Shown here one piece after another: positions 49,121 to 63,862 of a stretch of DNA of 64,000 bases. Numbering within the stretch: the stretch's first letter is position 1; the number at the start of each line of letters is the position of its first letter. The notes below the pieces were generated by a model. The model saw only the letters and a list, made by a program, of their open reading frames with translations, did not search any database and had not been told where the DNA came from. Origin of the DNA: Anaerolineae bacterium (GTDB lineage Bacteria > Chloroflexota > Anaerolineae > B4-G1 > SLSP01); contig DAOPQD010000006.1 in the NCBI GenBank assembly GCA_035347995.1, positions 1,019-65,018 on the forward strand, read 5' to 3'. The translations under genes were made by a program, and so were the position numbers.

Positions 49121-50629
49121 TCAGGTGGAATTTCGCAGCACCAGCGGCAGGTAAAGCCAGGAGGAAACTTCGCGATATTCGTAGGCGCCGATGTCGGGGC
49201 GCGCATTGCGGGGATGGTTCTCCAGGTCCACAGTCGGGGCGCCCTCAGCGCTGCCGGCGTTGATCGCCGGGCTGCCCGTCTGCAGGTGATAGTCGCCCGT
49301 CTCGCCCCAGGCCGGGCGCACGAAGCGCGGGTCGCCGCAGGCGTTCCCCTCGCCCAGGGAGGCGATGTTTTCACAGGTGAAGGCCGTCTCGCCGTGGGTC
49401 AGGAGGGTCGTGTTCTGTGGCAGGTAGAAGAGGTTGTGGTCGGCCATCACGGTGCTCGCTGGGTTGATGTAGAGGGGACAGTCGGACCCGCGCCCGCTGA
49501 AGACCGTGTTGCGCAGCGTCAGCTGCACCGGCACGGGATTGTCGTACTGCACGTACAGGAGATAGTTCTGCCCCACGTAGTCATCCACGGTGACGTTGAC
49601 GATCTCGAAATGGGCGTTCGCTTGCTCCACCTGGTCAATGACGATGGCGGCCCAGGGCGTCGTTTCGGCGTTGCCGTCGCCGCGGCCATAGATGAGGGTG
49701 TTCTCCACACGGCTGCCGTCGGCCCAGACCTTCACCCCATCGCAGGAGTTGTTGGCGACAACGCAACGGCGGATGGTGGTGTTGGCGGCCTTGGAGTCCA
49801 GCCCGTCGCCGTAGTTGTGCTCGGCGACGGTGTCTTCAATCAGGATGGGGCCCTGGGCCGGCTCGATGCCGAAACCGTCGGGGCGGTCGTAGGGGCGGGT
49901 GGAGCCGTCGCCGCCCTGATAATAGTGGCCGCTCCAGGAAAGGGAGCAGCCGCGGATGGTGACGTTGCGCCAGCCGCCGTGCTCCCCCGCCGGCCCGCCC
50001 AACGCGCCGAAGCCGGCGTACTCGATGCGACAGTTGAGGATTTGCAGGTCGTCCACATCCTGGATGTTCATCCCGAATTCATCCACATGGTGGATGGTGA
50101 GGTCTTGCAGAACGATGTGGGCAGAGGGCGCGCCCAGGATTTCTACCCCCTCGCGGAACCACAGCGCCTCGCCGGTAGCCTGATCGTCGTGGGTGATCTC
50201 CAGGTTCTGGATGCGGACGTACTGGATGCCGGACAGGTTGATGGCGGTGAGCAGGTTATCGCGCCCGGCCAGGACGGGGCGGTGGCCCTCCTCGCCCTGG
50301 ATGGTGATCCAGGCGGAGGCAGTGCCGGAGGGCGGGGTGAGGATGTCGGCGTCGTACTCGCTCAAGGTGTAACGCCCGTCGAGGATGATGAGCGTATCGC
50401 CGGGGGCCAGTTGGCGGGAGCCGTAGCCGGGGGTGGCCCAGGGCTGCTCGCGGCTGCCGGGATGGGCGTTGTCGCCGTTCGGAGCGACGTAGAACGTGTG
50501 GCCACCGGTCACGACGGTCGCCTCCTCAGGCGTCGGCGGCGAGGCAGCGGTCGGTGCGGGCGGAGTGGAGAAGGTGCAGGCAAGGAGCAGGGGGAGGGTC
50601 AGAGCCGCGAAAAAACATCGAATTCGCAT
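49121..50629 (-). CDS. Secreted right-handed parallel beta-helix protein ending in ...LYLPLVLRNST
   Basis: Signal peptide MRIRCFFAALTLPLLLAC. Beta-helix repeats (...IQNLEITHDD..., NCRIEYAGFG..., IRGCSLSWSGH...). GAGGAGG RBS 6 nt before the ATG at 50629. Confidence 0.75.
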   Translation of the reverse strand: MRIRCFFAALTLPLLLACTFSTPPAPTAASPPTPEEATVVTGGHTFYVAPNGDNAHPGSREQPWATPGYGSRQLAPGDTLIILDGRYTLSEYDADILTPPSGTASAWITIQGEEGHRPVLAGRDNLLTAINLSGIQYVRIQNLEITHDDQATGEALWFREGVEILGAPSAHIVLQDLTIHHVDEFGMNIQDVDDLQILNCRIEYAGFGALGGPAGEHGGWRNVTIRGCSLSWSGHYYQGGDGSTRPYDRPDGFGIEPAQGPILIEDTVAEHNYGDGLDSKAANTTIRRCVVANNSCDGVKVWADGSRVENTLIYGRGDGNAETTPWAAIVIDQVEQANAHFEIVNVTVDDYVGQNYLLYVQYDNPVPVQLTLRNTVFSGRGSDCPLYINPASTVMADHNLFYLPQNTTLLTHGETAFTCENIASLGEGNACGDPRFVRPAWGETGDYHLQTGSPAINAGSAEGAPTVDLENHPRNARPDIGAYEYREVSSWLYLPLVLRNST

Positions 50630-50668
50630 GAGGGCCTCCTCGAAAATCAGCAAATCGGCAAATCTCAA

Positions 50669-50910
50669 AATTACTTGCGTGGCAAATGTAACGCGAACTT
50701 CAGGCCGCTCTCAGGCCGTCCCGAATGAATTCCGGGTCTGCCATGTGAGGCCCGCTGAAGCAGGCTTCCAAACAACGCGCTTCAGCGCGGTTGGCTCGTG
50801 TCGGGCTGAGGATGGAATCCCCAGCCGCCCCGTGAGCCGTCGCTGTCGCTGCTCACGACGCACATTTTCATGCTTGCGGGGTGTGCGCCCGCACATGGCG
50901 TCACCTGCCC
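50669..50910 (-). repeat. Family-2 conserved leader repeat upstream of the beta-helix gene (copy b)
   Basis: Reverse complement contains GCTGAAGCGCGTTGTTTG, the CCCGGAATTCATTCGGG hairpin and the GAGGAGG RBS, as in copies a and c. Confidence 0.5.
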
Positions 50911-50964: not shown

Positions 50965-51237
50965 TCAATAGTTTCTCAACACCAGCGGCAGGTAGACGCC
51001 GTATCCGCCGCCGCACCAATAGCCCAGGCAGCCCTTATAGGTCGTGCTGAAGCCACTGCCGATGGCCGTCTGACCGACGGTGAAGTTGACGGCATAGTGA
51101 GCCGAACTGGCCGCTCCCCCGCTGCCGGTCAGCGGGGTGAACCAGTCCAGGCGGTAGTTGGGGGAAGACATCGCCAGGGCGCGGCCGGCCAGGAGGAACA
51201 GGACAGCCAGAGTCAGCAGAATTGCTATCCGTTTCAT
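50965..51237 (-). CDS. Small secreted Gly-rich protein (90 aa) ending in ...VYLPLVLRNY
   Basis: Signal peptide MKRIAILLTLAVLFLLAGRALA. C-terminal tail shared with two neighbours. Confidence 0.6.
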   Translation of the reverse strand: MKRIAILLTLAVLFLLAGRALAMSSPNYRLDWFTPLTGSGGAASSAHYAVNFTVGQTAIGSGFSTTYKGCLGYWCGGGYGVYLPLVLRNY

Positions 51238-51252
51238 GGCCCACCTCCTATG

Positions 51253-52624: not shown

Positions 52625-54808
52625 TCAGTAGTTCCGTAACACCAGCGGCAGGTACAGGTAGACGAATCTCCCCTCGTCCGCCCCGACGTCGGGTGACGGG
52701 CCGATAGGCCGGGGGTCGCCGTCTATGTCCCGCCTGACCCAGGTCAGCAGCAGGGCGTGGTCAGCGGCGTTGGAGCCGAACCGGAGATGATAGTCGGGCA
52801 ACAGCCTCGCCGGGCCGGACACTTCGTTCGTGCTGGTGACCCCCGGGCTGTAGTTGCTTTCGTTGCCCTCGAACAACGTATAATCGGCCGTGACCGTGCT
52901 GGTAGGCGACGCAGTGTTGGTGATGCCCACCGTCTGACTCACGATGAGGTTGTTGTACAGGAGCACCTTGCTATTGCCGCCGACATACACTCCGACCCCA
53001 TCGCCGCTCAGGTTGGCGACGAGGGTGTTGTGCGCCATTCGCCCTCTGATGAGCCCACTGTTGACAATCGCCACGCCGCTGCCGGTGGCGCTGACCGCGT
53101 TGCGCGCGATGATGTTGTTGGTCAGCGTGAAGACGTGGCACGAAGCTACCCGCACCCCGCCACCGTTGCCAGTTGTGGCGCCGCTGGCCTGATTATCCAG
53201 GATGGTGTTGCCTTCCAGCCACGGCCTGGCGCCCGAGAGCGCAAAGCCGCCGCCGAAACCTGTGCCCCCGTAACTGGTGGTGTTGCTGAGGACCTCGTTG
53301 CCGACGAAGCGGGGCGTGCCTCCCCGGACATCGACCCCGCCTCCTGCGCCCCAGCCCTCAGGAGCAGAGTTGGCGACGTTCTGGGCGATGCGGTTATCCT
53401 GAACCAGGACCACGCTCCTCGAGATCGCCATCCCGCCGCCCCAGCCCCAGCCGCCCCCCGCGCCCAGCACGGCCATGTTGTCGGTGATGATGTTCTCCTC
53501 GAGCAATCCGCCCCCGCCGTTGACGTAGAAGCCGCCGCCGTAGCCGGGGGTCTTGGACGAGGCGATATTATCGAACACCCGATTAGCCATCACCGTGGCG
53601 TAGCAGTCGTCCAGATAGAGGCCGCCGCCGTTGCCGTCAGCGACGTAACTGGCGCGGTTGTCATCGGCCACCACGTTCCCGCTCACCTCCGCTGCGGCAG
53701 ATAGGTTGTGCAGATACATCCCCCCACCCAGGCCGCGTTGGTCCAGCAAGGTGGCGACGTTGCCATAGACCCGGTTGTCGCGGATGACGGCCAGCGGGCC
53801 GTCGAAGAAAATGCCGCCGCCGCGGCTGAAGAGTCCCGGATCGGCCGTACCCTTGAGAGCGACATTGCCCTGGATCAGGTTGCGCTCTATCGTCACCGCC
53901 CTGTCCGAGTCTACGAAGATGCCGCCGCCGTGGGCCATCATATCTTGGCCGGCGACGTTGCGCAGGAGGCGATTGTCGGCAAGGACAGGGCTGCCGCCGA
54001 TCACGGCGATCCCGCCGCCGTTGCCCGCCGAGTGACCGGCGCGGTTGGTCTGGAGGGTATTGGAGAGCACCTGGGGGGAAGCATTCTCCAGATAGATGCC
54101 GCCTCCCCACCCCACGTTGCCGTCGTCGGCCACGTTGTTGGCGATGAGGTTGTTGCTGATGACGGCAGTGGCCGGAGCGTTGACCAGGTAGAGGCCCCCG
54201 CCGCGCCCATAGCCGGTGCAGGCTGCCGTCATGCAACCGTAGTTGCCGGTGATGATGTTATTGGCGATGAGGGGGGCCGCATTCCGCGCCGCGATGCCGC
54301 CGCCGTGGTTGGGGCCGTCCGCCGCGCCGCCCGCATTGCCGCCGGTGATGGTGAAACAGTCAATCGTGGGACTGGACTTGGTGATGCTGATGACCCGTGA
54401 GGTTCCGCTCCCGTCTAGAACCACGTTCTCCGGGTTACAGGCGGTGGGGGCCCAGACCCAATCTGTTCCCACAGGGTTGGGATGAGCCTGCCACGCGCCA
54501 TCCAACGTGACTGTCTTGGTGACGACGATGGGCCCATAAAAGGCGGAGGGCCCGGCGATGTCATCCCGGTCGGCCACACAGATCGTCTCGCCGGCCGATG
54601 CCCACTTCAGGGCGTACTGGATGGATTTACACGGGTTATTGGGGTTGCTGCAGGTATTTTCAGGGCTGTTGTTGCCGCCGTTGACCACATAGCGGTTGCA
54701 CGGCACGGCAGCCTGCGCCTGGATAACGGGGCCCTTCAACGCGAGCACCAACAGGAGCGCCAGTCCCAGGCCAATTCCGATAGCTACCAGTAAACGTAGG
54801 GTACGCAT
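52625..54808 (-). CDS. Secreted right-handed parallel beta-helix repeat protein (727 aa) ending in ...LYLPLVLRNY
   Basis: Signal peptide or N-terminal TM. Many ~22-aa beta-helix coils (G.I...N.I..N..GGGIY...). GAGGAGG RBS. Confidence 0.75.
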   Translation of the reverse strand: MRTLRLLVAIGIGLGLALLLVLALKGPVIQAQAAVPCNRYVVNGGNNSPENTCSNPNNPCKSIQYALKWASAGETICVADRDDIAGPSAFYGPIVVTKTVTLDGAWQAHPNPVGTDWVWAPTACNPENVVLDGSGTSRVISITKSSPTIDCFTITGGNAGGAADGPNHGGGIAARNAAPLIANNIITGNYGCMTAACTGYGRGGGLYLVNAPATAVISNNLIANNVADDGNVGWGGGIYLENASPQVLSNTLQTNRAGHSAGNGGGIAVIGGSPVLADNRLLRNVAGQDMMAHGGGIFVDSDRAVTIERNLIQGNVALKGTADPGLFSRGGGIFFDGPLAVIRDNRVYGNVATLLDQRGLGGGMYLHNLSAAAEVSGNVVADDNRASYVADGNGGGLYLDDCYATVMANRVFDNIASSKTPGYGGGFYVNGGGGLLEENIITDNMAVLGAGGGWGWGGGMAISRSVVLVQDNRIAQNVANSAPEGWGAGGGVDVRGGTPRFVGNEVLSNTTSYGGTGFGGGFALSGARPWLEGNTILDNQASGATTGNGGGVRVASCHVFTLTNNIIARNAVSATGSGVAIVNSGLIRGRMAHNTLVANLSGDGVGVYVGGNSKVLLYNNLIVSQTVGITNTASPTSTVTADYTLFEGNESNYSPGVTSTNEVSGPARLLPDYHLRFGSNAADHALLLTWVRRDIDGDPRPIGPSPDVGADEGRFVYLYLPLVLRNY

Positions 54809-54975
54809 CTTGTCCTCCTCTTCTAAAATAAAAATGGCTCACAGAGAAACACGGATTTCACGGATCAGAAAAGGTAATGCAAACTTCCGGCTGCTCTCAA
54901 GCCGCCCCGGAATGAATTCCGGGTCTGCTACGTCAAGCGCGCTGAAGCGGACTCCTCAAACAATACGCTCTTTGG
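54809..54975 (-). repeat. Family-2 conserved leader repeat upstream of the 727-aa beta-helix gene (copy c)
   Basis: Reverse complement closely matches copy b over ~100 nt (hairpin CCCGGAATTCATTCCGGG, CTGATCCGTGAAATCCGTG, GCCATTTT, GAGGAGG). Confidence 0.5.
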
Positions 54976-55035
54976 TAGATTGCAGGTCAGTGAGGGGGGC
55001 ACAATCCGACAGCTACATCGGTGGATACGGGGTGG

Positions 55036-55200
55036 CTGGATGCTGGATACTGGATGCTGGATACTGGATACTGGATGCTGGATGCTGGATGCTGGATACT
55101 GGATGCTGGATGCTGGATACTGGATGCTGGATACTGGATGCTGGATGCTGGATGCTGGATACTGGATGCTGGATGCTGGAGGCTGGAGGCTGGATACTGG
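55036..55200. repeat. Heptanucleotide microsatellite (TGGATRC)n, ~23 units
   Basis: ctggatgctggatactggatgctgg... seen directly. Intergenic, ~230 bp upstream of the beta-helix gene start. Confidence 0.8.
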
Positions 55201-55420: not shown

Positions 55421-56209
55421 TCACAAATCGGCTTCTATGCCCTGGGTAATGCAGGCGACAAGACGCAATAATTTATCCATGATGTGCTCTGCATGAATAT
55501 TCCCTTCATGTTTTGCCTGGCTCAGGCGGTCCGATACCACACTTACCCAGCTGCATTTCAGCCCCAGCCTCCTTCCGACTGTAAAAAAGGCTGATGATTC
55601 CATCTCGATCGTGAGGACTCCCAAGTCCCGCAGACGCTCGATCAGATGCGCTTCTTCCCGATACAGAGCCTCCGTCCCAAATGAAAGTCCTATGGTATGG
55701 GCCTCATTTTGTTGCGTCAGGTGGCGGTGAAGCAGCGCCGTCAAGCCGAAATCGGCGACGGCTGGATATTCGATCGGCGCGTAGTATCTCGAGACGCCGT
55801 CGCCTCGGATAGCCCCTTCGAGCAGGATCGTATCTCCGATCTGGAGAGTGTCTTGGAGCGCGCCTCCCAACCCCAGCCCAATCACATACTGGATTCCGCA
55901 AGCGGCTAATTGCTCCAACGAGTTGGCAATTCTTGCCCCGCCATACGACGGAAAATGAATTGCAAAACGCTTTCCGCTCTTGGTGACACACCGCTGCACC
56001 GGCGTGGTGCTGTAGGGCCACTTAAAGGCCGGGTCAATTTGGGGAAGCGTTTCGACTACCTGCCGAAAGAGACCAGAACTGAAGAGGACTAAACACGTCT
56101 TCCCAAGGTCCGCATTTTCTGGATCAAAGCCATGATAGAGGAAATCCTCTCGAGGGGTGACATAGCAGGCATCGCCAGTCCAAATATCATCACAAAAGAT
56201 TGAGTCCAT
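55421..56209 (-). CDS. Nucleoside phosphorylase family protein (PNP/UDP_1 fold; MTA/SAH-nucleosidase or futalosine-hydrolase-like)
   Basis: ...GLGLGGALQDTLQIGDTIL... and ...LTIEMESSAFF... fold motifs. Confidence 0.65.
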   Translation of the reverse strand: MDSIFCDDIWTGDACYVTPREDFLYHGFDPENADLGKTCLVLFSSGLFRQVVETLPQIDPAFKWPYSTTPVQRCVTKSGKRFAIHFPSYGGARIANSLEQLAACGIQYVIGLGLGGALQDTLQIGDTILLEGAIRGDGVSRYYAPIEYPAVADFGLTALLHRHLTQQNEAHTIGLSFGTEALYREEAHLIERLRDLGVLTIEMESSAFFTVGRRLGLKCSWVSVVSDRLSQAKHEGNIHAEHIMDKLLRLVACITQGIEADL

Positions 56210-58087: not shown

Positions 58088-60040
58088 ATGATGGGCAAGA
58101 CGCGGTTTCAACGAGTTGTAGCGCTGTTTTTGGTTATCTTCACTCTAACTTTCGCTTTATCAGGCAGCACGCTACGTGTGACCTCCTCACGGATCGCGGT
58201 TATCGTGCGGGGCGCCACCCTGGAAAGCGCCGCTGTCGCAGTCGCTCAGAACGGCGGGCGGGTGCTGGAGAGCTATCCCATGATTAACGCTGTTTTGGCC
58301 GACATTCCCGTCGCCGCCGGCAATGCTCTCACCGCGGCTGGGGGCGTTGAGGGCGTGTTCCCCAATCACACCGTCGAGGCCGCGGGCGGGCCGATAAGAG
58401 AGGAAGTGGAATTTGCCGAAGCCGTGGGGGCGGCGGACGTGTGGGCCGAGGGCCATCTCGGTCAGGGCGTCACCGTTGCTTTCCTGGACACCGGCATCGA
58501 ACCGCGTTTTGCCAGCCTGCGGCATGGAGCCAATGGGAATCGGCGTATCCTGGCGTACTACGACGCCATCGGCAATAGGCTTTATAAGGAGCCGCATCTG
58601 ATGCAATCGCCGGGCGACCCGAACGGGCACGGCACGCACGTCGCGGGCATTGTCGCCAACAGCACCTACGAACCGCGAAAGGACGCCTATCTGGGCCTGG
58701 CGCCGGCGGTGAACCTGGTGGCGGTGCGTGCCCTGAATGCCGACGGCTCGGGTACTTACGCCGATGTGTTGCGCGGCATTCAGTGGGTCATTGACAACAA
58801 GGACGTTTACAACATCCGCGTGCTCAACATCTCCATGTATGCCCAGTCCCTTGCTCCCTATTGGGCGGACCCCTTCTGTCTGGCCACGATGGCGGCCTGG
58901 AATGCGGGCATCACAGTTGTGGTGAGCGCGGGGAATGGCGGGCCTACGCCGATGAGCATCGGCGTGCCGGGCAACACTCCCTATGTCATCACCGTTGGCG
59001 CTTTCACGGATAATTACACTCCCTCCGATTTCGGCGATGACTACATTCCAGAATTCTCCGCTACGGGGCCCACGCTGGACGCCTTCGTCAAACCGGATGT
59101 GGTCGCGCCCGGTGCGCACATCGTCTCGCTGGCGCGCCATGACACCTATCTGGCCCAGCAGTATCCCGAGAACCGCATCGTCCCCTTCTATTTCAAGACT
59201 GCCGGAACCTCGATGTCGGCGGCGATGGTCTCCGGCGCGGCGGCGTTGATGCTCAGCGCGCATCCGGAATTGACCCCCGATCAGGTGAAGTATCGCCTGA
59301 CGCTCACGGCGCGACCGCAGTTCAGCGAGTACACCGGGGAAGCGGCGTACAGCATCTGGGAGCAGGGCGCCGGGCGCATTTGGATCCCCGATGCCGTCCA
59401 CACGACCATTCAGGGCGTCGCCAATCGCGGCATGGACCTGGCGGCCGACCTCGCGGGCGCAATCCACTATCAGGGCAAGACGGCGTACGATCCAGCAACA
59501 GAGCAGTTCCACATTTTGGGCTATGACACCTGGGCTGGCGGCTACGAGACCTGGGCTGGCGGCTATGAGACCTGGGCTGGCGGTTACGAGACCTGGGCTG
59601 GTGGCACCACTAACTGGTCGGGTGACTTCAATGACTGGGTGGCTGCTTACCAGAGTTGGAGCGATGGCTGGAACGCCTGGGCAGGTGGTTACGAGACGTG
59701 GGCCGGTGGCTACGAGACGTGGGCTGGCGGCTACGAGACGTGGGCTGGCGGCTACGAGACCTGGGCCGGTGGCTATGAAACCTGGGCTGGCGGCTACGAG
59801 ACGTGGGCTGGCGGTTATGAGACGTGGGCTGGCGGCTACGCGACCTGGGCTGGCGGTTATGAGACGTGGGCTGGCGGCTACGAAACCTGGGCTGGTGGCT
59901 ATGAAACCTGGGCTGGTGGCTATGAAACGTGGGCCGGTGCTATCGGAGATCCGACCTGGGCGGCAGCTTTCGTCAACTTGCAGAATGTTCCTGGCAGTAC
60001 CGCCACGGTGGGAGTCAACTGGGTGAATTTTACTGAATAG
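58088..60040 (+). CDS. Secreted subtilisin-like (S8) serine peptidase with C-terminal array of ~17 heptapeptide (ETWAGGY) repeats
   Basis: Signal peptide. Asp (AFLDTGIEP), His (HGTHVAGIV), Ser (GTSMSAAMVSGAAAL) catalytic triad. Repeat array at 59518..59945. Confidence 0.85.
   Translation: MMGKTRFQRVVALFLVIFTLTFALSGSTLRVTSSRIAVIVRGATLESAAVAVAQNGGRVLESYPMINAVLADIPVAAGNALTAAGGVEGVFPNHTVEAAGGPIREEVEFAEAVGAADVWAEGHLGQGVTVAFLDTGIEPRFASLRHGANGNRRILAYYDAIGNRLYKEPHLMQSPGDPNGHGTHVAGIVANSTYEPRKDAYLGLAPAVNLVAVRALNADGSGTYADVLRGIQWVIDNKDVYNIRVLNISMYAQSLAPYWADPFCLATMAAWNAGITVVVSAGNGGPTPMSIGVPGNTPYVITVGAFTDNYTPSDFGDDYIPEFSATGPTLDAFVKPDVVAPGAHIVSLARHDTYLAQQYPENRIVPFYFKTAGTSMSAAMVSGAAALMLSAHPELTPDQVKYRLTLTARPQFSEYTGEAAYSIWEQGAGRIWIPDAVHTTIQGVANRGMDLAADLAGAIHYQGKTAYDPATEQFHILGYDTWAGGYETWAGGYETWAGGYETWAGGTTNWSGDFNDWVAAYQSWSDGWNAWAGGYETWAGGYETWAGGYETWAGGYETWAGGYETWAGGYETWAGGYETWAGGYATWAGGYETWAGGYETWAGGYETWAGGYETWAGAIGDPTWAAAFVNLQNVPGSTATVGVNWVNFTE
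59518..59945 (+). repeat. In-frame 21-nt tandem repeat (ACCTGGGCTGGCGGCTACGAG), ~17 near-perfect units in two blocks
   Basis: Seen directly. Encodes (ETWAGGY)n within the S8 peptidase. Confidence 0.85.
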
Positions 60041-60117
60041 ATTTTAATCGCCTATTCAAAGACAAACAGGCGGGGGGCTAACCCCCGCCTGTTGTTCTGC
60101 TGTGACACAAGATGATG

Positions 60118-63100
60118 TCAGCGCGCAGTTTCGTGCTCGAGTTGGGCCAACGCCGCTTCTGTCTCTTGTAGATCCGCTGCCGCGCCGAGATGTGCGAAGA
60201 TTTGCCGGGCGCGTAGAAGCTCATCATGTGCTTGTTGTGTAGATTCGCAATCCAGATAGAACCGTGCGCTCCAGTAGCGACTGTGGGCCTCGTCAACGAT
60301 CGCTCCGCTTTTATGAAATAGCCGGAGGCTTTCCTCAATGTGCGTTCTTGCGTTTTGAGTGTCACCTCTTGCCTGAGCGAGACGGGCAAGGAGCATTTCG
60401 CAGCGTCCCTTTTCTACAGCGATTTCGGCTTCATCCCTGGTAAAGGCCTGCAGCAGGTCGTAGCTGGTTTGGGCGGCTTCCCGCGCAACTTCCAGATATC
60501 CCTGCTCCAGGCCGAGCCATCCGCGCAAAAATTGTGTGTTTACCAGCTCCAACTGTCCCCGCGCGCCTGTCTCTCTATACAGGCTGATAGCAGCGTTGAG
60601 ATGTTGCGCACTTTTGTTCCACTGCTTGCGCAGCAAATACACACGCCCGAGATTGCGATGCGCCTGCGCCAGATGATAGGGATTGGCGAGCTGTTGAGCC
60701 AGCTTCAAATCCCACAGTAGATGACGCTCAGCTTCGTCCCATTGCCCCAGATCGGTATAGAGCACACCCAGGTTGGTGTAAGCAATAGTGGTTCCCTCGA
60801 TGTCTCCGATCCGTTCGACGATCTCCAGACAGCGGTGGTAACTGCTGAGGGCTTTTTCCCAATCCCCTTGATTCTTTTGCAGGATGCCTAAATTGTTTAA
60901 CGGCCGCGCCATGCCGACCACATCGCCTACCTGCTCCAGGAGTTCCAGCGACTTCTGGACTGCCGCTGTGGCTTTCTCCAGGTCGCCCTGGGCGTAGTAC
61001 ACCGCTCCCAAACGGTTGAAGATAGCGGAAAGCGGCCCGTACAGCTGGTGTTGCCCGGCGAGCTGGGCCGCCTGTTCCAGCCAGCGTTGCGCCGTCGTGA
61101 CATCCCCCTGCCGCAAAGAGAGCCATCCCAGCTCCGAGTCGAGCTGCGCCTCCACTTTGGGGAGGGGATGCGGCGCCAGGCGGAGCTGCGCCAGCCCCTG
61201 CCGCAGCCAGATCTCTGCTTCCTGCTGATTGCCCTTTTTGTGCCATACCTGCCCCAACTTCAGCATCACTTCGGCCGCGTCTTCCTGAAAACCTTCGGTC
61301 GGGCTTTCCAGGGCGGCCCGATAACAGGCGATCGCTTCCTCATAATTGCCAACATGCTGGTTGATGTCGCCCAGGCCGATGTTGGCCTGCCGACGTTCCA
61401 CAGCATAGGTCTCGATATGCTGCGCCAACTGCAGGGCACGGCTGTAATAGTCCAGCGCTTCCCGGTTGGCAAAGCGCTGACGGGCGCGATCCCCTGCCAG
61501 CAGCAGATACTTGAGCGCTTTGCTGCGCTCACCGGCGCGATCGTAGTGCAGGGCGAGCACCTCCACGTGCGGCGCCAGATCCGCCGCGTACAGCTGCTCG
61601 ATTGCCTCGGCGATGTTGCGATGGAGCAGGGGCCGCTGGCTCCGCAGCAGGCTGCTGTAGATCGTCTCCTGGGTCAAAATGTGGCGGAACGCATAGACTT
61701 TCTCTTCGCCTTCATGCCGCTCGACGAGCAGTCCCATCTCCGTGAGCCGCTCTAGCGCCGGCAAGACGTTGGCGCTGCCCTGCTGCCGTCGCCGGACCTC
61801 GTTGAGCAGGCTGGCGGAAAATTGCAGGCCGATGACGGCCGCATCGCGCAAGAGGTTCCGCAGGTCTTCAGGTAACCGATCCACACGCGCCATCATCAAC
61901 CCGCGCAGGGTGGTGGGGATTTCCAGCGTTTCAGTGTTGATGAGGGGACTGACTTCCCATTGACCGTTGGCTGCGTGGACCAGCTGGCGCTCGATGAGCG
62001 TGCGCACGAATTCTTCGATGTAGAAGGGATTGCCCTCGGCGTGGCGCAGGAGCAATTGGATCATCGCTTCGGGCAGCTCACGGACGTTGATCAGATTCTC
62101 AAGCAAGGCGCGGCTGTCTTCATTCGACAGCGGGCTGACGTTGATTTCCGTCACCAGGAGGCCTGTTGCGGCCTCGCCTGCCGCGGCCCAGCTGAGCGGC
62201 TTTTCCGGCTGTGGGCGGGTGATCACGCACAACAGCACGGGCAACTCCCGGGTCAGCGAGACGAGCGCGTTCAACATGTCATGCGAGAGATCGTCGGCCC
62301 AGTGGAAATCCTCCAAAATCAGAATGAGCGGGCATTCCGCGCTGAGGGTCACGGCCCATTCGCGCATTGCCAGCAAAGTCAGTTTTTTGATCTGTTCCGG
62401 CTCCAATTCCCGCAGGGCGGAATGTTCAGTTGCCGCGGTCCGCACGCCCAGAATGGCGCGCAGGTGCGGTCGGAGGTCCGGCGAGACGTACCGCTCCACC
62501 TCCGCCAGGCCACCGGGCAGGGCGCGCAGCGCGTTTTGGAGCAGGGAACGGAAAATCCCGTAGCCCGTGCCCTGCGCATAGGGCAGCCCCCGTCCCTGGA
62601 AGACGTTGGCCTGATTTGGGGATAGCGCGCTGAGCCATTCGGCCACCAGCCGTGTCTTGCCGATGCCGGCCTCGCCGCGGATGATAACGATCCCCCCTGT
62701 GTGCTGTTCGAGGAGCGCCGTGCGCACCTTTGCCAGCTGCTCGAGCTCGGCGGCGTGTCCCAGGAAGACGGGGCGCACGCCGGCCAGACCCCGCACTGCG
62801 AGCGGAATCGCGCGCTCGCTCAGCAGATCGTAGAGGGGAAGCGGCGTGTCCAGCCCGCGAATCGTCATCTCGCCAAGGGCCTGGTAGTTGAACAGCGCTT
62901 GCGTCTGCTGATATACCCGCTCGCTGACCAGAATGTGGCCCGGCAGCGCGTGAGATTCCAGCCGCGCGGCGAGGTTCACGGTCTCGCCGATGACGGTGTA
63001 GGCGGCCTGCGTCTCCGTCCCTAAAACGCCGGCGACGGCCAGCCCGCAGTTGATGCCAATTCGGATTTGAATGGGGGCGCCCAGGCGGGTCTGAGCGATG

Positions 63101-63651
63101 GGGGCAAATTCGGCGATGGCGCGTTGCATGTCGAGCGCGGTGCGCACGGCGAGCTCGGCGTCATTCTCGTGGGCTACCGGCGCGCCGAAGACGGCCATCA
63201 AGCCGTCGCCGGTAAATTTATCCACCAGGCCGTCGTAGTGGTGGACGGAAGCCACCATCAAGCCCAAAAAGTCGTTGATGAGCTTGAACACCGATTCGGC
63301 ATCGAGGGAGGCCGAGAGATGCGTGAAATCGACCGCGTCCACAAACAACACGGTGATCTCGCGGCGTTCACTCCGCAGCCCTTCGGGGGTGTGCAACAGG
63401 CTGTTGGCCACCACGCGGGGCAGGAAGCGTTGCAGACGTTGGAGGGCCTCTTCCGCATTGCCCACTGAGGCAGCCGGTAGAAGGTCTTCTTCTGGCAAGC
63501 GCAGCAGTGCGCCGCAACTGTTGCAATAGCGCGCGCCGGGTGGATTGAGATGTCCGCAACGTAGACAGCGCTGACTCGCTGCGGCCGCTGCTTGCTCTTC
63601 TGTTGAAGAAACCGTATTCATACCTGAAAGCTCTCGCTGAACTCCCCACAT
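60118..63651 (-). CDS. Multidomain signalling protein: zinc ribbon, class III adenylate/guanylate cyclase domain, AAA/STAND NTPase, TPR repeats
   Basis: CLRCGHLNPPGARYCNSCG. Cyclase core ...ITVLFVDAVDFTHLS...FTGDGLMAVFG.... Walker A GEAGIGKTRL. C-terminal TPRs. Start uncertain (GTG 63693 or ATG 63651). Confidence 0.8.
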   Translation of the reverse strand: MWGVQRELSGMNTVSSTEEQAAAAASQRCLRCGHLNPPGARYCNSCGALLRLPEEDLLPAASVGNAEEALQRLQRFLPRVVANSLLHTPEGLRSERREITVLFVDAVDFTHLSASLDAESVFKLINDFLGLMVASVHHYDGLVDKFTGDGLMAVFGAPVAHENDAELAVRTALDMQRAIAEFAPIAQTRLGAPIQIRIGINCGLAVAGVLGTETQAAYTVIGETVNLAARLESHALPGHILVSERVYQQTQALFNYQALGEMTIRGLDTPLPLYDLLSERAIPLAVRGLAGVRPVFLGHAAELEQLAKVRTALLEQHTGGIVIIRGEAGIGKTRLVAEWLSALSPNQANVFQGRGLPYAQGTGYGIFRSLLQNALRALPGGLAEVERYVSPDLRPHLRAILGVRTAATEHSALRELEPEQIKKLTLLAMREWAVTLSAECPLILILEDFHWADDLSHDMLNALVSLTRELPVLLCVITRPQPEKPLSWAAAGEAATGLLVTEINVSPLSNEDSRALLENLINVRELPEAMIQLLLRHAEGNPFYIEEFVRTLIERQLVHAANGQWEVSPLINTETLEIPTTLRGLMMARVDRLPEDLRNLLRDAAVIGLQFSASLLNEVRRRQQGSANVLPALERLTEMGLLVERHEGEEKVYAFRHILTQETIYSSLLRSQRPLLHRNIAEAIEQLYAADLAPHVEVLALHYDRAGERSKALKYLLLAGDRARQRFANREALDYYSRALQLAQHIETYAVERRQANIGLGDINQHVGNYEEAIACYRAALESPTEGFQEDAAEVMLKLGQVWHKKGNQQEAEIWLRQGLAQLRLAPHPLPKVEAQLDSELGWLSLRQGDVTTAQRWLEQAAQLAGQHQLYGPLSAIFNRLGAVYYAQGDLEKATAAVQKSLELLEQVGDVVGMARPLNNLGILQKNQGDWEKALSSYHRCLEIVERIGDIEGTTIAYTNLGVLYTDLGQWDEAERHLLWDLKLAQQLANPYHLAQAHRNLGRVYLLRKQWNKSAQHLNAAISLYRETGARGQLELVNTQFLRGWLGLEQGYLEVAREAAQTSYDLLQAFTRDEAEIAVEKGRCEMLLARLAQARGDTQNARTHIEESLRLFHKSGAIVDEAHSRYWSARFYLDCESTQQAHDELLRARQIFAHLGAAADLQETEAALAQLEHETAR

Positions 63652-63862
63652 GTTAGCATTCCCTAGTGTACCATCCTTTTGGGCTTTTGTCACGTTGGAA
63701 TGGATGGCGTTCGGGCGAGAAATGGTAAGGAATCGGTTTTGGGTGATGGTTTGACAAAGCGGATGTTCAAGGCATACTTAGAGAGTCGGCATGTTCTTCG
63801 GGCACACCATCGAGAATGGCGTGGGAACATGTGAACATCACATCCTCGTGGAATCGTGGGGC

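Follow-up and report, generated by a model that had tools for sequence, protein, structure and literature searches.

What does a secreted-type protease gain from a long C-terminal run of tryptophan-bearing heptapeptides, and is such a run a working part of the protein or simply an accident of its DNA? We addressed this question for a complete S8 subtilase gene in a stretch of 64,000 nt from an Anaerolineae bacterium (Chloroflexota; assembly GCA_035347995.1, contig DAOPQD010000006.1, positions 1,019 to 65,018; hereafter the window, with all positions counted from its first letter). An original prediction, made from the letters alone, had pointed here to an S8 protease with ~17 near-identical in-frame 21-nt repeats encoding a Trp-rich heptapeptide. 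We find that the array is a working protein module, and not a fresh product of DNA slippage, because the repeat is under very strong selection in hundreds of related proteases and lies nearly always tail-to-tail with a signalling gene. As to what the module does, we prefer to read it, with a probability of roughly 0.4, as a scaffold of folded repeats, each a strand plus a tight turn, by which the enzyme is targeted or anchored. The gene and those of its parts that bear on this argument are as follows.

58088..60040, + strand: complete S8 subtilase gene of 650 residues, with its stop codon at 60038-60040 (open reading frame (ORF) list; PF00082, E 4.5e-47; identical protein, P0288, in public assemblies).
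59465..59527, + strand: beta-hairpin before the array, HYQGKTAYDPATEQFHILGYD (AlphaFold2 (AF2) strands at residues 465-468 and 473-476; the last 7 residues are a degenerate 'unit 0' in register with the array).
59528..59947, + strand: Trp-heptad array of 20 in-register units, residues 481-620 (Tandem Repeats Finder and translation; conserved in 120 of the 120 closest homologues).
59591..59674, + strand: degenerate central element TWAGGTT NWSGDFN DWVAAYQ SWSDGWN (at the equivalent place in all clade members).
59822..59842, + strand: a single 'YA' unit, TWAGGYA, fifth from the array end (position kept in every clade orthologue and in both allele types).
59948..60037, + strand: conserved C-terminal tail, DPTWAAAFVNLQNVPGSTATVGVNWVNFTE, of ~30 residues with an acidic end (a GDPxW...NLxNxP...VxINxWV tail recurs in homologues).

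The presence of a Trp-rich in-frame heptad array on an S8 protease was confirmed by Tandem Repeats Finder (59519-59934, period 21, 19.8 copies, score 397), by the ORF and by the PF00082 match, and the coordinates first predicted for it (59518-59945) proved right to within ~10 nt. In the register that runs from nt 59528 to 59947, all 20 heptads carry Trp at position 2. Exact TWAGGYE units account for 13 of them, four more are near-copies (AWAGGYE, TWAGGYA, TWAGGTT and TWAGAIG), and three are degenerate (NWSGDFN, DWVAAYQ and SWSDGWN); the earlier count of ~17 matches the perfect units plus the near-copies, but the register holds 20. Overall, the array is 26% Gly and 27% aromatic. Its units had also been described as almost identical at the DNA level, which overstates their likeness: any two of the 13 perfect units are on average 2.64 of 21 nt apart, every change being synonymous, and only 3 of their 78 pairs are identical in DNA, with a longest exact direct repeat of 37 nt. 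Shadow ORFs that cover the array in other frames or on the other strand were set aside as by-products of a GC-rich repeat. Assemblies from NCBI, JGI and ENA sources contain the identical 650-residue protein (P0288) on 5 contigs in all, so the 20-unit array is not an assembly artefact, the outcome that had been named as grounds for dismissing it.

We next asked how the array evolves, comparing the window gene with five orthologues (79-83% identity) by the Nei-Gojobori method for nonsynonymous (dN) and synonymous (dS) divergence. Across the array, dN is 0.005-0.008 at a dS of 1.5-3.2, and across the perfect units alone dN is 0, with 40-52 synonymous differences and a saturated dS; the S8 catalytic core, by comparison, has a dN of 0.10-0.13 at a dS of 1.0-1.8. 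The array is the most constrained part of the protein, ~20 times more so than the catalytic core, and because its synonymous sites are scrambled and saturated while the amino acids hardly change at all, it is the identity of the peptide that is under purifying selection. The order of the units is likewise kept across species, following the layout [3-5 units] TWAGGTT NWSGxFN DWVxAYQ SWSDGWN AWAGGYE [4-6 units] TWAGGYA [4 units] TWAGAIG, with unit counts of 18, 20, 20, 20, 21 and 22 between species and of 19-21 inside the cluster formed by the window protein at 90% identity. Unit number changes slowly, by gain or loss of whole units, and such changes stay in frame because a unit is 21 nt long. 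Against a 98%-identical strain, array dS is 0.23-0.31, two- to threefold the value in the remainder of the gene, and off-diagonal unit matches indicate one unit gained and one lost, with both arrays still at 20: slippage-type turnover exists, yet it is held in check.

These patterns bear directly on the idea that the array is a recent slippage expansion, or an artefact, with no function at the protein level. In its favour, strains do differ by whole-unit gains and losses, several contigs end within the array, and one metagenome-assembled genome (MAG; locus L004) has 9 units through the deletion of exactly 11 (231 nt), a case that may itself be an assembly collapse. Set against this are the same 20-unit protein on 5 contigs, the scrambling of synonymous sites under perfect conservation of the peptide, and an architecture kept across species, with an array in 120 of 120 homologues. 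The homologue, architecture and dN evidence refutes this explanation for practical purposes, and we give it next to no weight. The recent expansion that had been proposed fails on the same grounds, with synonymous sites scrambled between units and saturated between orthologues and the order of special units conserved across species, whereas the predicted variation in repeat number was borne out once relatives were compared (18, 19, 20, 21 and 22 units, and the one case of 9). A contingency (phase-variable) simple-sequence repeat was also considered and rejected, given unit changes that leave the frame intact, units that differ by a mean of 2.6 nt and a count that is nearly constant across species.

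How widespread is this domain? All of the 120 best homologues, which derive from MAGs of Anaerolineae, Thermoflexales and other Chloroflexota and are usually annotated as 'AprX' or 'S8 peptidase', carry an array, with 9-66 in-register heptads. Trp is present in each of their 120 modal units (42 of them distinct; consensus [STGA]-W-[AS]-[GD]-[GS]-[YF]-x), a W-x-G-G-x-T-N-W-S-G motif occurs in 86 of the 120, and many distant homologues have a small-residue unit like 'YA' near the array end. Two classes can be told apart, a short one with a median of 15 units and a long one (830-1130 residues) with a median of 46.5. In the long forms (P0005-P0104), arrays of 37-66 units consist of two or three super-repeats bracketed by alternating conserved Cys contexts—SWADxCG... 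and ...CxQWVxGF—that are mostly 56-86 residues apart; judged from their sequence, these Cys pairs suggest disulfide-closed loops of ~10 heptads, that is, stapled fold-backs.

An exhaustive HMMER scan with the array plus the tail (cut-off E <= 1e-10, clustering at 50%) returned 212 cluster representatives, and the genuine W-[AS]-G-G arrays in full-length proteins belonged to S8 peptidases without exception, W-[AS]-G-G being the sole invariant feature across the family. The search for ETWAGGY-like arrays in other proteins that the original prediction had suggested hence has a divided answer: related arrays are many, but they were found solely in S8 peptidases. Matches set aside as unrelated heptads included YadA-like heads and eukaryotic or spurious W-heptads (e.g., ETWDVRH and DEPWLAE). 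Two members, P0181 and P0182 (813 residues, lipoprotein-type S8), place 8 W-heptads between the N-propeptide and the catalytic domain. The C-terminal region of these two proteins is unrelated, with a weak GH115_C-like match, and a locus of this type (L093 8001-10442) has type IV pilin-like (N_methyl) genes and a response regulator upstream. More distant S8 relatives (40-44% identity) from Gammaproteobacteria and Acidobacteriota carry arrays of hexapeptides instead of heptapeptides, such as GYLWTN, GFVWSD and GFAWAD, and hexapeptide versions also occur in some Thermoflexia (GMTWAD, GLSWAD); these relatives share a related ...NxWV tail with an acidic end (NxWVxQE).

Searches for a described counterpart support the earlier impression that the repeat belongs to no known domain. 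Pfam, NCBIfam and PADLOC scans of the window protein matched only S8 and nothing over residues 481-650, Pfam and related scans of seven variant relatives found nothing beyond S8 above threshold, and a word-indexed homology search with the repeat alone gave 6 matches, all fragments of the same family. A PDB sequence search with the repeat region had nothing at E < 0.03, its chance-level matches including an antibody complementarity-determining region and a GGY-rich low-complexity sequence, while literature searches by peptide motif and by topic found none that describes the repeat. The WXXGXW repeat of PF12779 is alike in being short and rich in Trp and Gly, and it weakly matches a hexapeptide relative (E 0.044, 14.3 bits), but that match lies below the 18-bit cut-off, the window protein has none, and the two are not the same family. 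A PDB profile search did return the heptad beta-roll of the Lolium ice-recrystallisation-inhibition protein 3ULT (E 1.6e-4) and UspA1 (3NTN; E 0.031). The 3ULT match rests on Gly periodicity, and these profile matches do not establish homology for the array. On this sequence evidence, the repeat at residues 481-620 is an uncatalogued and undescribed domain.

The rest of the protein is far more familiar, and it comprises three N-terminal parts.

58088..58186, + strand: putative signal peptide or signal anchor, residues 1-33 (a basic start, the hydrophobic stretch VVALFLVIFTLTFAL, then SGS).
58187..58447, + strand: probable I9-type N-propeptide, residues 34-120 (a beta-alpha-beta-beta-alpha-beta unit in the AF2 model, with pro-subtilases as top structural matches).
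58460..59314, + strand: Peptidase_S8 catalytic domain, residues 125-409 (PF00082, E 4.5e-47; 161 bits against a cut-off of 21.8 bits).

Profile, catalytic residues in their proper order and fold all place the protein in Peptidase S8. D134 (DTG; 58487-58489), H181 (HGTH; 58628-58630), the oxyanion residue N283 (58934-58936) and S375 (GTSMS; 59210-59212) are invariant in an alignment of 82 sequences, and the confident core of the AF2 model has the subtilisin fold, with Foldseek matches to 3AFG and pro-subtilisins at E 1e-26 to 1e-17. The model also has a helix at residues 3-24 and confident propeptide elements (strands 35-42, 58-63, 68-74 and 87-92; helices 45-54 and 75-82), for which the best structural matches are unprocessed pro-subtilases; Pfam Inhibitor_I9 gave a weak match in one relative only (P0058, E 0.095). 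The solved structure nearest to the propeptide and catalytic part is ProN-Tk-SP (3AFG). Among the sequence matches to the catalytic domain is also PDB 8jmw, the S8 peptidase Vpr solved in fibril form.

We propose that the array would serve as the C-terminal domain of this presumably Sec-exported subtilase with its probable N-propeptide, a domain kept throughout Anaerolineae and related Chloroflexota. Each heptad would contribute a short strand (Y/F-x-S/T-W-A) and then, through GG, a tight turn of two residues, and the units, each in its fixed place, would stack into an elongated scaffold that starts at the Kelch-like hairpin, is closed by the conserved ~30-residue tail and displays a regular row of Trp (and Tyr) side chains. 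Retained on the mature enzyme and non-catalytic in itself, the scaffold may then target or anchor the protease to a periodic partner, for example a glycan of the envelope or sheath, or a polymeric substrate that is insoluble. A candidate carbohydrate- or surface-binding stalk, as first suggested, is in our view the most economical reading of the array.

What can be stated plainly is that the domain exists, is widespread and is under extreme purifying selection, with position-specific units. Across species and allele types alike, no shift in position is seen for the central TTNWSG element, the YA unit or the terminal unit, and units with an N or D variant keep their places between the two alleles of the YD type (described below). 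At the turn positions only G, N, D or S is accepted, and the hexapeptide relatives have DG or NG there; DG, NG and the like are classic two-residue hairpin-turn sequences. Over the segment before the array, the family profile matches Kelch-blade hairpins in a PDB profile search (8pjy, E 2.5e-5). Unit counts also cluster tightly (20, 20, 20, 20, 21, 22 and 18). Conserved caps (the hairpin and the tail), position-specific units, turn residues, Cys pairs and a weak match in periodicity to 3ULT together favour, indirectly, a defined structure. The likeness to 3ULT and to the YadA/UspA1 heads extends to a seven-residue period, a turn Gly and a small residue two positions earlier, and YadA-like proteins also surfaced in the exhaustive search; these families, however, lack the Trp, the likeness is one of periodicity only, and AF2 builds no roll here. 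Bacterial ice-nucleation proteins offer another parallel, having 16-residue units with Gly-Tyr turns and aromatic ladders whose uniformity is thought to serve a periodic ligand. Their long runs of highly uniform short units resemble the array, but unit length and protein context differ, and no sequence similarity is present.

Several observations weigh against the scaffold. Structure prediction, which had been proposed as a check, gave no usable model of the array: in the full-length AF2 run (82-sequence alignment) residues 479-650 have a predicted local distance difference test score (pLDDT) of ~25, and a single-sequence run on the C-terminal 191 residues stays mostly below 50. Since AF2 tends to over-predict beta-solenoids on perfect repeats (PMC11795689), low confidence here counts against a regular fold, and with the array unmodelled, Foldseek informs on the catalytic part alone. 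Heptad and hexapeptide versions space Tyr and Trp differently, and position 6 is Pro, Arg or Met in some lineages, variation that makes a single regular fold less than obvious. Occurrence in S8 peptidases only is unusual for a portable binding module, the array of P0181 and P0182 lies between propeptide and catalytic domain, and anchoring leaves unexplained both a conserved signalling neighbour and an allelic cassette shared with it.

That neighbour lies just past the protease stop codon and converges on it.

60065..60093, no strand assigned: GC-rich hairpin that separates the convergent genes and probably acts as a terminator for both (terminator scan; stem of 12 pairs, 9 of them GC).
60118..63693, - strand: protein of 1191 residues with zinc-ribbon, class III cyclase (Guanylate_cyc), AAA_16 and TPR parts (Pfam; TPR_12, TPR_MalT and related domains).
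~59500..60868, no strand assigned: allelic cassette that takes in the array and tail, the terminator and, from the neighbour, its TPR end (last ~240 codons) (strain comparison).

Among 50 Chloroflexota loci with enough flanking sequence, 46 have an orthologue of the cyclase-AAA-TPR gene in convergent orientation 51-326 nt past the protease stop, and three further loci have one within 2-4 kb. The adjacency holds down to 47% protease identity, and the upstream genes differ between loci. The surroundings had been called an accessory neighbourhood, a label that suits only the strain-variable upstream side, the 3' neighbour being conserved class-wide. In other phyla (Gammaproteobacteria and Acidobacteriota; loci L065, L066, L071, L072, L077, L082, L083 and L085), hexapeptide relatives adjoin CHASE4 or Reg_prop/Y_Y_Y hybrid kinases, or proteins with response regulator (RR), PAS, GGDEF and EAL domains, often among tandem S8 paralogues.

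Strain comparison revealed that the array and the end of its neighbour vary together. Within the 90% cluster of the window protein there are two array types, YE (TWAGGYE, as in the window) and YD, in which D stands in place of every E and position 5 may be G, N, D or S. Their tails differ as well, and either type can be joined to either N-terminal background, so that all four combinations exist. One locus of each type, L091 (YE) and L089 (YD), was assembled identically from two independent samples. Their flanks are 97-100% identical (dS 0.04, dN 0.003), whereas a cassette of ~1.5 kb (L091 6296-7872) is only 57-90% identical, with a dS of 2.5 and a dN of 0.32 in the protease tail and a dS of 2.4 and a dN of 0.50 in the TPR protein from residue 1041 to the end. 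The YE and YD cassettes are two old haplotypes, with saturated synonymous sites, residing in near-identical strains; their dN/dS is 0.1-0.2 and so gives no sign of positive selection. Over its last ~140 residues, the TPR end of the YD allele shares 36-50% identity with that of the window, which makes it more divergent than the TPR end in a different species (64-82% identity). A second mosaic (L003 4844-8572 vs. L004) has its boundary ~545 nt inside the 3' end of the cyclase gene, the two loci being 92-96% identical in VKOR, in the protease gene and in those last ~545 nt, and 98-100% identical elsewhere. In 903 pairs of loci, a mismatch between heptads is a predictor of lower identity at the TPR end once the rest of both proteins is controlled for (0 of 2000 permutations), in a regression that is uncorrected for phylogeny or linkage, physical linkage being a confounder of the covariation.

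Could the array be a message rather than a structure? In this alternative, the subtilase cuts its own array into heptapeptides of the ETWAGGY type, or frees the tail, and a neighbouring sensor reads the product. The proposed reader in Chloroflexota is the cytosolic TPR end of the STAND-type cyclase-AAA-TPR protein, after re-import of the peptide, and in Proteobacteria and Acidobacteriota with hexapeptides that role falls to a periplasmic sensor kinase. Under this model, the YE and YD cassettes would be alleles of differing specificity, much like pherotypes, and the logic would resemble RRNPP/ComRS quorum sensing. Much in the locus speaks for this: the convergent gene in 46 of 50 loci, the hybrid kinases or RR-GGDEF-EAL proteins beside the hexapeptide relatives, two old haplotypes that span exactly the array, the tail and the last ~240 residues of the TPR protein, and a second mosaic boundary likewise in the TPR 3' region. 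Unit peptides are also identical within an allele type and all switch from E to D together, heptad mismatch tracks divergence of the TPR C-terminus (with the permutation result, uncorrected as it is, given above), AF2 sees no fold, and Tk-SP, the closest solved homologue, has a roomy S1 pocket that accepts Trp (PMC12474785). Yet the position-specific units, central element, caps and Cys pairs point to a folded structure, YD arrays are not uniform given the variation at position 5, and since the two gene ends abut, one neutral recombination import would cover both. Moreover, the low dN/dS of the cassette carries no mark of positive selection, no peptide transporter lies nearby, the receptor has no helix-turn-helix (HTH) domain, and cleavage of the array is itself conjecture. 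Known systems agree only in part. RRNPP/ComRS are peptide-TPR quorum-sensing systems and agr/comQXP are pherotype cassettes. In common with these, a short sequence coding for an aromatic peptide adjoins the gene of a cytosolic TPR sensor (46 of 50 loci), and a polymorphic cassette covers the peptide region and part of the sensor. The 'precursor' in the window, however, is the tail of a 650-residue protease where a small pro-peptide for export would be expected, and the sensor is a STAND-type cyclase with zinc-ribbon, Guanylate_cyc and AAA_16 domains but no HTH output domain. The yeast alpha-factor and fungal repeat-peptide precursors are multi-copy peptides processed by Kex2/subtilases, and they share with the array many tandem identical copies under purifying selection and an association with an S8-family protease; they differ in having spacer or recognition sites and a separate protease, where the window array has no spacers and is fused to the enzyme. 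We regard a multi-copy signal as possible but unlikely.

Two further readings dispense with both reader and scaffold. By analogy with Tk-SP of Thermococcus kodakarensis, the array and tail might be a C-terminal propeptide or pseudo-substrate that is autoprocessed off during maturation, its aromatic units occupying or shielding the substrate cleft until removal, so as to delay activation or aid export, and the released peptides having no role. Tk-SP (TKSP; 3AFG) is a subtilase that is secreted, has an N-propeptide and extends past its catalytic domain at the C-terminus, as the window protein probably does too, and its match to the propeptide and catalytic part is strong (E 2.4e-48; Foldseek E 1e-26, ~30% identity), but it lacks Trp heptads and does not align past window residue ~481. 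Its extension consists of a Ca-binding beta-jelly roll followed by a removable C-propeptide, and its S1 pocket is inhibited more strongly by a propeptide that ends in Trp (PMC12474785). The confinement of the array to S8 peptidases, its place at the propeptide/catalytic junction, a usual cleavage place, in P0181 and P0182, and the low AF2 confidence would all fit removal. Propeptides, however, usually evolve faster than catalytic domains, and this array is ~20 times more constrained than the core; arrays of 40-66 units with conserved Cys pairs also seem excessive for a removable inhibitor, and we think such a propeptide rather improbable. The array might instead be an intrinsically disordered aromatic 'sticker' tail of the GW/FG type, without fixed structure, that mediates multivalent, low-specificity adhesion or self-association. 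A pLDDT of ~25, the 26% Gly and 27% aromatic content, a family-wide invariance limited to W-[AS]-G-G and a period of either 6 or 7 are consistent with this, but a disordered aromatic tail would be a prime substrate for its own subtilase, and a fuzzy linker would not be expected to keep all seven of its positions fully conserved or to have position-specific units, caps and Cys pairs; we regard this reading as a long shot. Three more candidates were rejected: a precursor of a ribosomally synthesized and post-translationally modified peptide, with no tailoring enzyme in the neighbourhoods whose genes were examined; an RTX-like substrate of a type I secretion system, given the putative N-terminal Sec-type signal and just one acidic residue in each window unit; and an anti-phage S8/STAND system, for which the PADLOC matches are generic domains and the protease appears exported.

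Some features of the upstream side deserve mention in their own right. A heptanucleotide tandem repeat, GCTGGAT/ACTGGAT, with 23.7 copies and 90% matches, occupies 55035-55200 between a PNP_UDP_1-like gene (55421-56209, - strand) and the start of a 737-residue beta-helix gene (52625-54838, - strand), and could be a length-variable promoter-region repeat. Three ORFs, all on the - strand (52625-54838, 50965-51252 and 49121-50710), end in a common C-terminal motif, YLPLVLRN(Y/ST), and two of the three are right-handed beta-helix proteins (PF13229); a fragment of a W-repeat S8 relative, P0126, ends in the similar ...YRQRLPVVQR, and ends of this type may serve these Chloroflexota as a C-terminal sorting tag that is so far uncharacterised. 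Upstream of the PNP/Ino1 genes, L091 (1-1755) and L089 have unrelated DNA (~45-50% identity); this strain-variable region of L091 includes a Pel9A-like beta-helix gene and corresponds to the area of the YLPLVLRN-tail genes in the window.

Collectively, these findings mean that a large branch of the subtilases, which are among the best-studied enzymes, carries an uncatalogued C-terminal domain, and that the source of this branch, the Anaerolineae, is a group abundant in the sampled anaerobic digesters and sediments. As a natural example of concerted evolution in repeats, the array is unusually clean: selection holds the peptide while synonymous sites drift, and the whole array switches a residue between allele types. 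Even on the ordinary reading as a scaffold, the repeat merits a family definition and a solved structure. The class-wide linkage to the cyclase-AAA-TPR gene, together with the shared recombining cassette, suggests that the repeat takes part in signalling and not in anchoring alone. If so, signalling between cells or at the envelope could be approached through concrete tests in a phylum for which there is hardly any knowledge of it, and if the array did prove to be a multi-copy signal, filamentous Chloroflexota would have an architecture for peptide signalling between cells that has not been described before.

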